36,150 nucleotides of DNA from a virus (lineage: Duplodnaviria; Heunggongvirae; Uroviricota; Caudoviricetes). The DNA lies in the IMG/VR virus record IMGVR_UViG_2534682139_000010, one strand, 5' to 3'. A program made the position numbers. Below, one piece after another: positions 6,001 to 12,000 of the stretch (its first letter is position 1; each line of letters begins with the position of its first letter).

Positions 6001-9000
6001 GAAGTGGAACTGGCCACACTCACGTGGGTGGACTGGTATAACAATCGACGATTGCTGGAAAGGCTGGGCCATACTCCCCCGGCAGAAGCAGAAAAAGCTT
6101 ATTATGCTTCCATCGGAAACGATGATCTGGCAGCCTGAGTTCACAGATAAAACACTCTCCAGGAAACCCGGGGCGGTTCAGATGTGACAGATCCGAGATA
6201 GCTTTGCATCCTTCTGCTTGGCTCAAGCCAGGCGCGGCCCATGTTTTACCAAAATGCTCGGCAGCGTAACGTGTTGCAAGAGTGGCATCAGAGGAGGAGC
6301 CAGAGGTTCCGCTCATGACCGGTAGCCCAGCTTTATCACGCATGATTGTGCCGATATCTTGAGAAAGATCCATGCCTGTTTGTGTGCGGGTGGAGTGTGT
6401 ACCGTTACGCTGAGCATCAACGCGATTGTTTGCGCGGAATGTCATTCGCTCCTGAATTTTTAGCCTTCCAGCCAACACTTGGCCAGTCTGTGCGAGCTCG
6501 AAGCCGGAGAGTGTTTGCTCCTTCGTGAATGGTCCTGCAGAACCACACAGCATCATTGAAAAGGCAGAACGGGCACTATCAGATAATTTTAGTCCACGAC
6601 TACCGTAAAATGGTGAACCAGGTTTTGGTTCTTCTGAACCAAGAGCCTCTTTGCCTAGCTGATCACGATCGTTTCCATTCCAGCGTGTTTCCGTTTTCCA
6701 AAGGCCACGCTCCAGATGCCCCATCCATGCTGCTTGTTTGAATACAGGAGATTCTGGATTAGTTAGTCCCTCAACGGTCGAACGCAGAATCTTCTCTTCT
6801 GCTTTGCGATGTCTCAGATAATTCTCTGCTCGTGTTTGCAGATGCTCTAATGATTTGTAATTATTGTTGGAAAGTGTAATTTGTAGGAATGATCTCACAG
6901 TTAGCGGCGAGTCAGCACCTGGCCGATAAGGTTGAGTTCCTATGTGGGCTTGGCTACACAATCCATCCTTCAGAGTATTACTGTCAGTTGTATATCTACC
7001 GATTTGTGAATCGCTTACAACTGGTTTGATTCTGTTCGCCATACCACTTGACGGTTTATTACTTGCGTTTTCACCATTTGACCTAGGACTGAATAATCCA
7101 GAAATACTTCTTTGACTGCTCTCGGGCTTTGCTGCAAACATATCCACTATTCCTTATTATTTGACATCCTCCACGCCCTGAAGGACGGGGTTTTACGGCG
7201 CACCGGATAAAAACATGTCGCCCCTACAGAGAAGCACAAAGCCTTGCAAGCCATTGTGAGACCTTATGTATCTCAGTTTTATCCCACCAATATATATTCA
7301 CCACAAGAAGCACACCTAAAGCAATGGATGCAGTCTTACCTGTAGGAATCCCTGACTCACTGTATTGTCATCATGAATGAGAGCTGAGTCGTGAGGGTAG
7401 GATGTTCTACGGGGCATCCCAATCTCTTCGCGGAATTTATTTTCTGAAAGCACCTCCTCTGAAAAAGCCCCCAACCCAACAGTTCTGGCTTCTTCGAGTA
7501 AAAGTGGAGAGTATTTTTGTGATTCTGGTCGGGAACTCTCAACTTTCAGGCGCTCCCCATTTAAATTGTGGAACACATGGAGCAACTCATGAAAAACAAT
7601 AGTCGCATGAAAGTCCACCACGCTAATCCCCTCCCCACAGGGATATTCAACTGCATTCAGATTACAGTGAAAATCGGAACCAGTTCCCCGATGGTTCTCA
7701 GCATCTATATCTCTATGTGCAATAACTCCTAGTCTGGAAGAATTGAGGTGTATTACCACTGTTTCTGATTTAAGTCGGGATATTGATTCAATAGCATTCA
7801 GGAGTACACGCCCTGTCTCTGTAGAGCCAATCTTATCGAGCGCTGCTTCAATCTGTTGATATATATTATGATCAGTCCCCTGGAAACGAAGTTGCGGATT
7901 GTTTTTTATCCATTGAACGCTCGATGTTTTTACAAGAGACTCGATACCTGCATCTGACATTGAACTCGACGTTGATGACTGATGTAATGCCAAGTTGAGG
8001 GACGTAGGGCGCATCAAGGACCTCTGAAAATGTTACGAGTTTCATTCACCACACACTGAAGCTCAGACCAATGTAACATCACAGATGTATTCGGTTTATT
8101 GCGATATAACATAACTTACTTCCACAACTTCCGCTCCAGGTACATCCACCACTGACATCCTCTGACATTTTGAATGTCTGTGGTGTTTTATATAAACTAC
8201 CGAAAATCAATATTGCTTCATGTAAAACATTTTAACCATCTTTTATAATGAAGTTTCCCTTTGAACTGTCAAATATACAATCTTCTGGCTTTACAATCAT
8301 TGATGGAGTTATTGTCTCTCGTGTCAGTGGGTGAACCCCACCTTCACGGACCAAACGAGAAATAGAAACCGAATCAAATAAGGTACAAACCAAAGAACCT
8401 TCTGAATTTTTAACAAAAACCCCTGTTTCTGGTGTTTCTAATGTAACAGGACACCGTTTTCCCTCTTCCGGGCATTGAAGCTTCTCCTGGCTAACACTAA
8501 AGGCACATTCGGATATTCTTGCCTGTAATAAGACATTTTCTTGCTCGTGTCGTACTTCTCTTACGCCAGAATGTGCCGTTAATAAGTTATTGGCAGACAA
8601 ACCAGAAAACATGACATCCCCAATAATAAACCCACGACCAACACCGAAAAAAACGGCATCATTTGGTTCATGAGAAATAGCAACCATCTCATTACCTATT
8701 CGGATTTCGCCAGTCTGTCTTGGTGTTGTTTGATTGCGTGATTCTGCTGACTCATTCAATAATGAGCCAGGCAGTATATTGGATGCTCCTACAGGTTGCA
8801 TTGTTTACTCTCCATATAAATATTATCACTGCTTCTTCCTAACAAACATCCACCATACATGACAACAAAAACCGGAGCCGGACTCCGGTTTTGTGAAGCT
8901 GTCGGGTTACTTCATCCCGCCAATATTTTCCCACGTCCCGTCAGCACGCAGGATTTGCAGCGGTCTTACCACTGAACCGCCCCGGGAATCCTGGAGACTA

Positions 9001-12000
9001 AACTCCCTGAGAAAGAGGTAAACAGGATGACTAAAAATACACGTTTTTCCCCCGAGGTCCGTCAACGGGCAGTTCGTATGGTTCTGGAAAGTCAGGGCGA
9101 ATATGACTCACAATGGGCGGCAATTTGTTCCATTGCCCCAAAGATTGGCTGTACACCAGAGACTCTGCGTGTGTGGGTTCGTCAGCATGAGCGGGATACC
9201 GGGAGTGGTGATGGTGGACTCACCACCGCTGAACGTCAGCGTCTGAAAGAGCTGGAACGTGAAAATCGTGAACTGCGCCGCAGTAACGATATCCTTCGCC
9301 AGGCTTCCGCTTATTTTGCGAAGGCGGAGTTCGACCGCCTCTGGAAAAAATAATGCCGCTGCTGGATAAGCTGCGTGAGCAGTACGGGGTCGGACCGGTA
9401 TGCAGTGAACTGCATATTGCCCCGTCAACGTATTACCACTGTCAGCAACAGCGACATCATCCGGATAAACGCAGTGCCCGTGCGCAGCACGATGACTGGC
9501 TGAAGAAAGAGATACAGCGCGTATACGATGAAAATCACCAGGTATACGGTGTGCGTAAAGTCTGGCGTCAGTTGTTACGGGAAGGTATCAGAGTGGCCAG
9601 ATGTACAGTGGCGCGCCTCATGGCAGTTATGGGACTTGCCGGTGTTCTCCGGGGTAAAAAGGTCCGCACTACCGTCAGCCGGAAAGCCGTTGCCGCATGC
9701 GACCGCGTAAACCGTCAGTTCGTGGCAGAACGTCCAGACCAGTTGTGGGTGGCTGATTTTACCTGGGTAAGCACATGGCAGGGCTTCGTTTATGTGGCGT
9801 TCATCATTGATGTGTTCGCCGGATACATCGTGGGATGGCAGGTCTCATCATCCATGGAAACAACATTCGTGCTGGATGCACTGGAGCAGGCGTTGTGGGC
9901 CCGTCGGCAGTCCGGCACAGTCCATCACAGTGATAAAGGTTCTCAGTATGTATCACTGGCCTATACGGAGCGACTAAAAGAAGCAAAACTGCTGGCATCA
10001 ACAGGGAGTACAGGTGACTCGTATGACAACGCGATGGCGGAGAGCATCAATGGTCTTTACAAAGCGGAGGTAATACACCGTAAGAGCTGGAAAAACCGTG
10101 CAGAAGTGGAACTGGCCACACTCACGTGGGTGGACTGGTATAACAATCGACGATTGCTGGGAAGGCTGGGTCATATCCCTCCGGCAGAAGCAGAAAAAGC
10201 TTATTATGCTTCCATCAGAAACGATGATCTGGCAGCCTGAGTTCACAGATAAAACACTCTCCAGGAAAACCGGGGCGGTTCACACCGCCGCCGTGTAACG
10301 CACCACCTTATCCATCAGTACCTGGTGATCGAGTTTTTCGCCCACGGCCTCTTCCCAGGTCTCGCCCAGCGTGGTGTTCACAAAGGTTTTCAGGCCGTTG
10401 GGATCTTTCAGTGCATCCAGCCAGTCATAGACAATCTGTACCCAGGTGGTGAACGGACTGTACGCCGTCCAGATATGGAACATGATGGAGCGCGGCGGCG
10501 GAATTTCATCACCCCGGGCGCTGAAAAACGTCAGACCGTCACGGGTCCACATGCCCGTGTTTTCACAGATCCACCGCCCGTTGCTCTGGTCAAGCTCAGA
10601 CTGATGGATCACGCAGCCATGATGTTCACAGAGGTAGAAAACACTTTCAGGGCTGTCCTTCTCCCATTTAAGCCCAAAAGGCGTGGACTCATCGCCAAAT
10701 TTCAGATACTGCTCCTCCCCACAGTGCGGGCAGGGCACATAAAAACGCATAAAATGCGCCGACTCGTTAGCGGCTTTTTCGATCTGGCAGGTGCCTTTGA
10801 TTTTAGGCGTCGAGCCGCGAATGGATTTTGGCCACACCGACCCCTCAATACGCTTATCCCCCAGCAGGGTTGGCGAGCCCTCTTTTTCGACATCCGGCTC
10901 GAACGAGGAAAGTTCGTCACAGCAGACCACGTCCACGGATTTTTCACGGTAGTTTTTGGCGGCAGCGCCGCCCAGGCACCAGAAACCGACGCCCGATGAA
11001 AAGCGTTTCAGCGTGAGATTATTGTCACGATGTTTACGACCCAGCCATGGGGAAAGGTCTTTCAGGCATGGCACGTTCCGAATCGTCGCCTCCACGTGAG
11101 ACTTCATAAAATCTTCAGCGGCAGAATCCGTGGGCTGAAAAAGCAGACTGTTTCGGGATTTATGCTCAATAAAATACCCGACCACCCCCAGCAACATCTT
11201 TGTATAGCCAACACGGGCAGATTTAATCAGGTTAACCGTGCGAACCTGGTCGTTACCCATACAGTTCATAATGGCGATCTGGAATGGCAGCGTTTTCCAT
11301 TCTCCCTCACCATATGAAGATTCTTTAGGCAGATAATAATTTTGATCAGCCCATTCAACTGCCGTCATTGGTACAACCCTGACCAGAGGCTGCAGCGCAA
11401 CCGAAACGGCAGCCATCATATTATTCAGTTGTTGCTCTGATATATTCATCGAGTAAATCCGGTAATTTATCCCCTGCCCGCGCACACTGATTTGCCCCCT
11501 TGCAATAAGGGTTTTCAGTATGGTCAAGATGGCGCGGTGTTAAATCAGGAAACTGTCGCTGCATGGATAAAGGGATGGAATCAAGCGTACTGGATAACGC
11601 CATTGCCAGCTTACTGAGGGCAAAATACAGAACCCGGTGTCAATTAGTTTTCCTTTTGACACCTCATTTTTTAACTGCTGTGTAACAGCCTGTTCTGCTG
11701 TCAGTTCCCATCTGGCAATAAGCAATTTCTCCTCATAGTCGTCTTCGCTATCGCCATCAGGCACATCGTTTTTACTTCTCCTCAGATACGATATGTAAAA
11801 ATCGCGCCAGGCATCCAGATCCAGTTGCCCTCGCTTATTCGATATCGGGGCACCCGGCAATTTCTGCAATCTGCGAAGCTGGCGATCGGTCAGACTTAAA
11901 TGCCTGGCAACTTCAGTCTGCGTAGCCACTCCTCACCTCGCAAAAACTCTCACCTCACAATCACAACAAAACCGGTCATGTCCGGTTTACATGCCGTTTT

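Follow-up and report, generated by a model that had tools for sequence, protein, structure and literature searches.

How did an IS629 element come to abut a broken large terminase gene in an effector-carrying prophage, and what became of the genes expected beyond it? We addressed this in a window of 36,150 nucleotides (IMG/VR record IMGVR_UViG_2534682139_000010), which carries a lambdoid, Qin-like prophage in ydfJ of an O103:H2-type E. coli. A truncated ydfJ at the left end of the window marks the chromosomal integration site, the early region is of the dicB/dicC/ydfC type, and four IS629 copies are present. As the reference for the intact state we used the sibling prophage of E. coli UTAK-6, which occupies the same ydfJ site.

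The IS629 copy and the genes at its ends

The tips of the element, read directly, are TGAACCGCCCCGGG at 8973 and GGGGCGGTTCA at 10282, and both its length and its terminal inverted repeats agree with what we take to be the IS629 reference values (∼1310 bp; TGAACCGCCCC... and ...GGGGCGGTTCA). An orfA of 108 aa with HTH_Tnp_1, an orfB of 295 aa with HTH_21 and rve (Pfam) and an Rfam ALIL frameshift pseudoknot at 9308-9424 (120.9 bits) supply the HTH protein, the DDE/rve protein and the programmed -1 frameshift signal of such an element. Against the three further IS629 copies of the window it shows 42-47 differences (∼96.5% identity), and it is 96.4-100% identical to copies annotated by RefSeq as IS3 family; some O157 copies carry the RefSeq label IS1203 family. 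Published IS629 subtypes lie 4-5% apart (PMC3271280), which fits the 3.4% divergence found here. The window copy is of subtype B over its entire length, as read from nucleotide 14 onward, and is no A/B hybrid. An 81-nt query from subtype B matched IS copies by the thousand, whatever their subtype, and gave no discrimination. Two other copies in the window served as controls, and both copy 1 (GATG flanks, with an empty site in UTAK-6) and copy 3 (CAG) resemble simple insertions. A 5-nt likeness of the left flank (GCGGT) to the IS end, noticed by eye, was judged to be chance.

On the right of the element, the gpA reading frame runs from an ATG at 11449 to 10283, a stretch of exactly 389 codons out of 642; the final three nucleotides of the IS (10280-10282) provide its TGA stop. 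The sequence-only reading had put the end at the IS terminus after ∼389 codons. Pfam recognizes a complete GpA_ATPase domain (aa 48-293), followed by profile positions 4-68 only of the 294 in GpA_nuclease. The intact 642-aa allele has both domains, whereas the window gpA lacks the complete C-terminal nuclease domain expected of a functional protein, and its orthologue in RefSeq is an incomplete pseudogene without a C-terminus.

On the left, the minus strand from 8972 to 8910 translates to VVRPLQILRADGTWENIGGMK and a stop, identical to the C-terminal 21 residues of UTAK-6 WP_001101700.1, an 89-aa protein of the Pfam family Phage_fiber_C. The 21-codon tail formerly ascribed to some other gene can thus be assigned to the tail-fibre C-terminal gene; the corresponding remnant in WL1467 is annotated as an N-terminally truncated pseudogene. 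A terminator and then nleG and nleD had been proposed to come next. The two effector genes are borne out by Pfam and RefSeq, and the hairpin, which sits downstream of the tail-fibre gene stop, by folding, although a consensus terminator scan did not flag it.

Table 1. Features around the IS629 copy under study (window coordinates).
Feature	Coordinates	Strand	Evidence
nleD, T3SS effector zinc metalloprotease	7316..8017	-	Pfam Peptidase_M91; NleD in WL1467 and UTAK-6
nleG-family effector gene	8232..8801	-	Pfam T3SS_NleG, E 1.4e-42; RefSeq WP_001183303.1
GC-rich hairpin followed by U-run, terminator-like	8868..8892	-	fold -21.2 kcal/mol, 11-bp stem
Tail-fibre C-terminal gene, 3' remnant (last 21 of 89 codons and stop)	8907..8972	-	match to UTAK-6 WP_001101700.1
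Left CAC, native tail-fibre sequence (...TTACCAC then GCACTG in intact gene)	8970..8972		UTAK-6 comparison
IS629-type IS3-family element, subtype B	8973..10282	+	1310 bp; terminal repeats, length, orfs
Right CAC, native terminase sequence (...GGGCAGG then CACCGCC in same allele)	10283..10285		L005, L006
Lambda gpA-like large terminase, 5' 389 codons	10283..11449	-	ORF reading, Pfam, RefSeq orthologue
Nu1 small terminase gene, frame broken	11421..11929	-	alignment to four relatives
cosN-like 12-nt sequence, retained	12113..12124	-	exact match, GGGCGGCGACCT on minus strand

A 20-kb deletion with IS629 at its edge

Window positions 6910-8972 correspond, with 1 mismatch, to 7679-9741 of the UTAK-6 prophage locus (L004), and positions 10283-28178 to 30093-47989 of the same locus. 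A simple insertion would have two IS flanks that are contiguous in an empty site and share a duplicated 3-4 bp. In UTAK-6, whose sibling prophage occupies this chromosomal site in intact form, they are separated by 20,351 bp, so the window carries a deletion with IS629 at its edge. This upholds the earlier proposal of an IS-associated deletion rather than a simple insertion. Like the first reading, we found no continuation of the terminase past the IS in the window. The comparison also completes the endpoint mapping against an intact relative that had been suggested: the loss is 20,351 bp, an approximate ancestral length since UTAK-6 carries another allele of the terminase 3' part, with 13 SNPs over 737 bp.

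In UTAK-6 this stretch holds 21 complete structural or cargo genes and parts of two more. Lost on the gpA side are gpA codons 390-642, W, portal, protease, D, E, FI, FII, Z and U; from the middle V, G, T, H, M, L, K, I, sodC, J and lom; and on the fibre side the tail-fibre N gene and the first 68 codons (out of 89) of the tail-fibre C gene. Portal, head and tail genes had been reported missing, and the comparison extends this to the whole morphogenesis module. Still present in the remnant are the early region, cos, the lysis genes and effectors such as nleG and nleD. The effector and virulence cargo named for the prophage further includes espV and paa.

Damage is also found in Nu1, where private 1-bp indels around 11501, 11519 and 11621 leave two fragments in the ORF list; all four aligned relatives encode an intact Nu1 (WP_000235436.1). 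The cos/Nu1 region is 99.4% identical to that of L005/L006 from related O103:H2 genomes, and the 12-mer GGGCGGCGACCT is what we take to be the lambda cohesive end. The integrase is disrupted by another IS629. Judged by its gene content, the remnant is predicted to be capable neither of packaging DNA nor of building particles by itself; the earlier statement that it cannot form virions unaided rested on gene content too, and gains support from the Nu1 frameshift and the disrupted integrase. Since sibling prophages have a near-identical terminase and cos, packaging in trans is conceivable.

Origin of the CAC flanks

Each CAC triplet already belongs to the intact gene on its side (Table 1), so the pair does not represent a genuine target-site duplication of one insertion. 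The UTAK-6 terminase allele has TAC at the position of the right CAC, and we considered whether the C at 10283 stemmed from a duplication of tail-fibre sequence; this was rejected, since intact genes of the window's own allele have CAC. At a spacing of 1310 bp, 1.8% of positions in the window have identical 3-bp flanks. The suggestion that the flanks may be chance therefore survives as one of two options, and the CAC pair is either a 3-bp microhomology used in joining or a 1.8% coincidence.

Junctions in related genomes

The right junction, in which the IS is followed by CACCGCCGCC, is common to WL1467, UTAK-14, WL1277 and FWSEC0007 at the sequence or coordinate level, and occurs in CEC12044 at the alignment level. 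The left tip, on the other hand, has at least four different partner sequences among related O103-type genomes. It adjoins the tail-fibre CAC in the window; ...CACACAC with nt 1-1191 of a subtype-A IS629, joined bluntly to the IRL tip and with no microhomology, in WL1467; an espV remnant (GTGATG) in UTAK-14 and WL1277; and an inverted segment in FWSEC0007. The IS-bounded loss in PV16-126 is larger still. One junction is thus conserved, the other tip varies and the breakpoint lies at the IS tip, as in an end-anchored deletion, and the common IS-terminase junction together with the varied left partners argues for an older gpA insertion followed by left-end deletions. In UTAK-14 and WL1277 all diagnostic sites of the IS from nt 14 onward are of subtype B, which confines any crossover to the first 13 nt.

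WL1467 shows the same order as the window, namely tail-fibre remnant, IS and gpA. We rejected the idea that the window IS arose by recombination of the subtype-B copy in gpA with the subtype-A copy present in the WL1467 tail fibre, the window element being B from nt 14 and its junction lying 4 bp from the site of the subtype-A insertion. The tail-fibre C gene is a repeated IS629 target, with a simple insertion 21 bp away in SLK172 (duplication ATC), a subtype-A copy 4 bp from the window junction in WL1467, and several O157 cases. Z1323CEC0012 has an IS-less terminase/tail-fibre deletion scar with the microhomology TGTA. This scar lies 8 nt from the gpA IS site of the window.

Composite queries were also run against 5,426 complete E. 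coli genomes. Neither the gpA 3' part with CAC and the IS left end (the junction of an IS in gpA that is still linked to the 3' part of this gene, GGGCAGGCAC joined to TGAACCGCC) nor the IS right end with CAC and upstream tail-fibre sequence (the junction of an IS in the tail fibre that is still linked to the upstream part, GGCGGTTCA joined to CACGCACTGTATC) had a contiguous match in these genomes. The window's own left junction (CTTACCAC joined to TGAACCGCCCCGGG) was found in no other complete genome, and the IS-less scar CTTACCAC-CGCCGCC (the CTTACCACCGCCGCC junction) in none of the 5,426.

Proposed course of events and alternatives

The course that we consider probable, though well short of certain, is insertion into gpA followed by a ∼20.35-kb deletion anchored on the left IS end, in an O103:H2-type prophage. 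A subtype-B IS629 would have entered gpA at a CAC after codon 389; a deletion from the left (IRL) end of this IS would then have taken ∼20.35 kb and joined the IS tip next to a CAC of the tail-fibre gene. The joining probably took place in aberrant or abortive IS3-family transposition, perhaps by transposase cleavage at the IS end and subsequent IEE-type microhomology joining, or else by one-ended strand transfer. As no intermediate was present among the 5,426 complete E. coli genomes, we infer the order of events, and likewise the enzymology of the deletion. The WL1467 junction, lacking microhomology, does not fit a single joining mechanism for all sister structures.

The same arrangement could result from homologous recombination between two IS629 copies of the same orientation and subtype, situated in gpA and in the tail-fibre C gene, both having generated a CAC duplication of their own, with excision of the 20-kb module and one IS. 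IS-bounded deletions classically arise in this way, EHEC genomes and plasmids commonly carry subtype-B copies, and the tail-fibre C gene has been struck repeatedly, as described above; the WL1467 state could equally have arisen by a subtype-B hop into a subtype-A copy and later recombination. We nevertheless regard this explanation as rather unlikely. It needs two independent insertions with equal 3-bp duplications (∼1/64, or 1.8% empirically) by an element without target specificity (PMC3271280), and no genome among the 5,426 has both copies, or the tail-fibre copy alone, at this locus. The UTAK-14/WL1277 product, moreover, demands a crossover in the first 13 nt of 1.3 kb of homology, which looks end-anchored, unlike ordinary RecA recombination. 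A cross between two subtype-B copies would be traceless; in the window the IS flanks match and the IS is not an A/B hybrid.

The mirror image of our preferred course, in which the IS first entered the tail-fibre C gene, duplicating a CAC there, and a deletion then ran rightward into the gpA CAC, makes use of the same native triplets and of a gene that IS629 frequently targets. It is nonetheless improbable in view of the related genomes examined, where the right junction is conserved and the left variable. WL1467, the only other genome with a tail-fibre remnant, has a different left junction, and its extra ACAC and truncated subtype-A copy prevent its derivation from the window junction by simple insertion. 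Misjoining of contigs over repeated IS629 sequence, with the module still in the real genome, could be suspected from the four copies in the window, the absence of the exact left junction from all other complete genomes, and the private Nu1/cos indels, which possibly reflect sequence quality. Yet the IS is of a distinct subtype relative to the other window copies, independently assembled complete genomes have the IS-gpA junction, also without the module, and WL1467 has the same gene order; a collapsed tandem of the WL1467 type would have left ACAC and subtype-A bases behind, neither of which is seen in the window. Such an artefact is therefore very improbable. Hardly credible, and already disfavoured, is an IS-independent deletion at CAC microhomology with IS629 later inserted exactly at the scar. 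The order CAC, IS, CAC has the exact form of the true 3-bp duplication that this would produce, and the scar in Z1323CEC0012 is a known IS-less counterpart, but the IS must have hit one 3-bp scar within a ∼35-kb element, and the genome search yielded no IS-less version of the junction.

Comparison with known systems

Qin of E. coli K-12 is a cryptic prophage at ydfJ with dicB/dicC/ydfC and without morphogenesis genes; its decay is not known to bear an IS629 mark, nor is it known to carry T3SS effectors. With this background picture of Qin the window shares the ydfJ site, the type of early region and the loss of structural genes. Defective lambdoid prophages of O157 Sakai, such as Sp4 without an intact terminase, likewise carry effectors and have packaging and morphogenesis defects (Asadulghani et al. 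2009, PMC2669165). Unlike these, the window lacks the whole head-tail module, has a frameshifted Nu1 and an IS-disrupted integrase, which together would make excision or mobilisation less likely than in the Sakai prophages.

IS629-associated deletions and IEE-promoted IS629 excision with flanking deletion in EHEC (Calvo et al. 2023; Ooka et al. 2009 and Kusumoto et al. 2011 as cited in PMC9943667) involve the same IS629/IS1203-type IS in LEE-positive STEC hosts, start exactly at the IS end and have short homology at the joint. The size of our deletion is within the reported range, flanking deletions of a few nt to >40 kb being given in PMC9943667. IEE has a microhomology end-joining activity and occurs in O103:H2 (PMC9943667; bioRxiv 10.1101/2023.06.07.543989); in vitro, 4- and 6-nt overlaps were extended and 2-nt overlaps were not, a 3-nt match lying between these sizes, and copy-out-paste-in transposition alone is not expected to delete donor DNA (bioRxiv 10.1101/2023.06.07.543989). 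In contrast to IEE-promoted IS629 excision, the IS is kept in the window and the homology is only 3 bp, with none in the sister WL1467. IS3 can stay in place while removing adjoining DNA (Kanai et al. 2022, PMC8860574). In that operon-formation system, as here, an IS3-family element remains and DNA beside one inverted repeat is lost, with endpoint homology of ≤6 bp; it differs in using a plasmid and over-expressed transposase and in giving deletions of hundreds of bp, against 20 kb here. In O157, matching duplications were reported at 21 of 47 IS629 sites, with no target specificity, and 62% of sites were in prophage, as is the present one (PMC3271280).

A further reading, in our view unlikely, is that the left end of this IS629 may be a recurrent generator of one-ended deletions through transposase cleavage and IEE-type short-homology joining. 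Nested deletions and rearrangements across O103:H2-type strains would then originate from one IS end, the series comprising the 20-kb loss up to a CAC in the window, an event ending in another IS in WL1467, and one ending within the first 13 nt of the neighbouring IS in UTAK-14 and WL1277; self-excision of the IS might have left the TGTA scar in Z1323CEC0012. In that case the locus would record IEE-type events in chromosomes as a natural time series, with selection sparing the effector genes. Weaker still is a second such reading, in which the ATPase-only gpA fragment, together with cos, would interfere with packaging by sibling prophages.

Implications

IS629-driven prophage decay with retention of effector genes is ordinary and already well documented in EHEC. 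Here, defects in packaging, head and tail genes, Nu1 and integrase leave a prophage carrying nleG, nleD, espV and paa fixed in the chromosome, and its virulence cargo would spread only with the help of other prophages, if at all. The IS junction states vary between close O103:H2-type strains and could be of use as lineage markers.

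Identity of IS copy 2

Its length and ends, its two protein products (one of 108 aa with HTH, one of 295 aa with rve/DDE, by Pfam) and an Rfam ALIL frameshift pseudoknot indicate that IS copy 2 belongs to the IS3 family and is of IS629/IS1203 type. Each of the other three copies in the window differs from it at 42-47 positions (∼96.5% identity), which fits the 4-5% divergence published for the IS629 subtypes of O157/O55 (PMC3271280); we refer to copy 2 as subtype B and to the others as subtype A. A private A at 9909 (IS position 937, in orfB), where all copies compared have C, is the sole difference from the subtype-B copy of the related genome WL1467. 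Copy 1 entered espV by a clean, simple insertion: 4 bp, GATG, are duplicated at its edges, and its empty site, AATAGTGATGTGACAG, was found in UTAK-6. It has lost one base at IS position 414, a change that may inactivate its transposase. The duplication that flanks copy 3 is of 3 bp, CAG.

Features around IS copy 2 in window coordinates, and genes missing relative to UTAK-6
Feature	Position	Detail	Basis
IS copy 1	4872-6180
Hairpin	8868-8892	strong, with U-tail; beyond the tail-fibre remnant	folding
Tail-fibre remnant	8972-8910, minus strand	translates to VVRPLQILRADGTWENIGGMK and a stop
Left CAC	8970-8972
IS copy 2	8973-10282	1310 bp; starts TGAACCGCCCCGGG, ends CCGGGGCGGTTCA	ends read from sequence
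ALIL pseudoknot	9308-9424	inside IS copy 2	Rfam
Right CAC	10283-10285
Truncated gpA	11449-10283, minus strand	ATG at 11449; 389 codons
cosN-like 12-mer	12113-12124
IS copy 3	29346-30655
IS copy 4	34883-end
Missing, tail-fibre end		tail-fibre C gene codons 1-68 (first 68)	UTAK-6 comparison
Missing whole genes		tail-fibre N, lom, J, sodC, I, K, L, M, H, T, G, V, U, Z, FII, FI, E, D, C protease, portal, W	UTAK-6 comparison
Missing, terminase end		gpA codons 390-642	UTAK-6 comparison

Extent of the deletion

The sequence-only reading held that IS copy 2 cuts the large terminase gene, gpA, after ∼389 codons, with no continuation beyond the element but a 21-codon tail of another gene, a terminator and nleG/nleD. 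All of this was borne out. The truncated frame has exactly 389 codons and is closed by a TGA formed by the final three bases of the IS; by Pfam its GpA_ATPase domain is complete, but GpA_nuclease is reduced to positions 4-68 of a 294-position profile, both domains being found in an intact 642-aa allele. The tail corresponds to the C-terminal 21 residues of an 89-residue Phage_fiber_C protein, and its WL1467 counterpart is a tail-fibre C-terminal pseudogene in RefSeq. Past the hairpin come nleG, then nleD.

Comparison with an intact relative, as that reading had advised, placed the endpoints at the left CAC and at 10283. The intact sibling prophage of E. coli UTAK-6 occupies the same site (truncated ydfJ) and carries the same nleG7/espV/nleD/nleG cargo. 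As far as the left CAC, window 6910-8972 departs from it at a single base, and 10283-28178 aligns from the terminase onward; the 20,351 bp separating these points in UTAK-6, an approximate measure of the ancestral length since its terminase 3′ part is another allele, are not in the window. Portal, head and tail genes all lie within this stretch, and the remaining window holds lysis, regulatory, replication and early genes only. As judged from this gap, the structural module is truly absent and the event was, as proposed, an IS-associated deletion rather than a simple insertion.

The gpA 3′ part (10283-11019) has 13 SNPs in 737 bp against UTAK-6 (L004, 30093-30829) and is a near-perfect match to the terminases of two other prophages (L005, L006). 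Further right only ∼10 sites differ from UTAK-6 in 17 kb, and this change in SNP density indicates a putative mosaic or recombination boundary within gpA, near 11019-11390.

The CAC triplets at the two IS edges had been suspected of being chance. The intact tail-fibre gene reads ...CTTACCAC|GCACTG at the left breakpoint, and intact terminases of the window's allele (2-3 mismatches in ∼1200 bp) read ...GGGCAGG|CACCGCC at the right, so that both triplets are native gene sequence and leave a target duplication unproven; the UTAK-6 allele has TAC at the right position. IS629 is reported to have no sequence-specific target (PMC3271280), and triplets this far apart, 1310 bp, agree by chance at 1.8% of the window's positions. 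The match is either coincidence or a 3-bp microhomology used in end joining.

Junctions in related genomes

The IS|CACCGCCGCC junction and truncated gpA are common to WL1467, UTAK-14, WL1277, FWSEC0007 and CEC12044, and the partner of the left IS tip varies by group, that of the window being the tail-fibre CAC. In WL1467 (L001, 13660-16176) the tail fibre is 4 bp longer (...CACACAC, extra ACAC) and next to it comes a subtype-A IS629 that breaks off at nt 1191 and meets a complete subtype-B IS bluntly, with zero microhomology; an end-anchored deletion into an IS, or an IS-into-IS hop with later recombination, are possible origins. We rejected IS copy 2 as a recombinant of these two copies, since it is subtype B throughout and its junction lies 4 bp off the subtype-A copy; on the same grounds neither structure is a simple derivative of the other.

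UTAK-14 (L007, 7971-9340) and WL1277 (L008, 7661-9002) lack espV 5′, nleD, nleG and the tail-fibre remnant, and their subtype-B IS directly adjoins the copy 1 left flank, GTGATG|. Because this IS has subtype-B bases at all diagnostic sites from nt 14 on, any crossover must lie within the first 13 nt, common to both ISs, which is unusual for recombination across 1.3 kb of homology. The FWSEC0007 IS is interrupted by another IS, within an inverted segment. PV16-126 (L011, 31846-34123) has a larger IS-bounded deletion in the same prophage, from an espS/espV remnant to ydfR, which takes gpA, Nu1, perC, lysozyme and an Rz-type lysis gene; its Q antiterminator gene carries another IS629.

In SLK172 (L009, 1811-3120) an IS629 has independently entered the homologous 89-codon tail-fibre C gene by simple insertion, with ATC duplicated, at a point 21 bp away from the window breakpoint. 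Several O157 genomes have IS629/IS1203 in or adjoining this small gene; the area may be a regional IS629 hot spot. In the unrelated chicken isolate Z1323CEC0012 (L010, 3450-3530), an IS-less join with 4-bp microhomology (TGTA) connects the tail-fibre N gene to gpA of the same allele, beginning 8 nt past the window's CAC; either the proximity is a coincidence, or the join is a scar left when an IS was excised together with flanking DNA.

Origin of the window structure

That the right junction is conserved while the left one varies suggests that an older IS insertion in gpA came first and that later events, more than once, were anchored at the left end of the IS. A left-end-anchored deletion after the gpA insertion is the best-supported reading, and we consider it rather probable. 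With IS629 and IEE, deletions beside the IS range from a few nt to >40 kb, and IEE, a polymerase with microhomology end-joining activity, occurs in O103:H2 (PMC9943667; bioRxiv 10.1101/2023.06.07.543989). IS3 stays in place while deleting adjacent DNA, with endpoint homology of ≤6 bp (PMC8860574). In O157, matching duplications are present at under half of the IS629 sites (PMC3271280). Composite junction queries of 5,426 complete E. coli genomes returned no intermediate and no IS-less scar of the window junction, so the order of events is one that we infer.

The main rival, homologous recombination between two subtype-B copies, would leave no trace; it supposes a chance CAC duplication at each copy, and we regard it as rather unlikely. 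Assembly error is also unlikely, given that IS copy 2 is a distinct subtype, that the IS|gpA junction recurs in several independent complete genomes and that WL1467 has the same gene order.

Consequences for the prophage

The cosN-like 12-mer is kept, and the cos/Nu1 region is 99.4% identical to that of sibling prophages with intact terminases. Trans-packaging is known for defective O157 prophages (PMC2669165) and is conceivable for this remnant. In the Nu1 and cos-proximal region (11421-11997) the window has changes that none of the four close relatives shares, namely 1-bp indels near 11501, 11519 and 11621 (A5 to A4), which break the Nu1 reading frame, and a small change at 11994-11997; these could be real decay or, because indels outnumber substitutions, sequence error. 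IS copy 4 (region 34791-36150) breaks the prophage integrase after 92 nt (codon 31). The gene is intact in WL1467 and other relatives, where, from the shorter matched span, copy 4 appears to be absent. Excision of the prophage is probably no longer possible, and with Nu1 frameshifted and the integrase interrupted the element is most likely immobile despite cos.

IS629-associated erosion of effector-carrying lambdoid prophages is well known in EHEC, and the orthologous pseudogenes were annotated in RefSeq beforehand; what this case adds, modestly, is a series of differing left-end junctions across sister strains.
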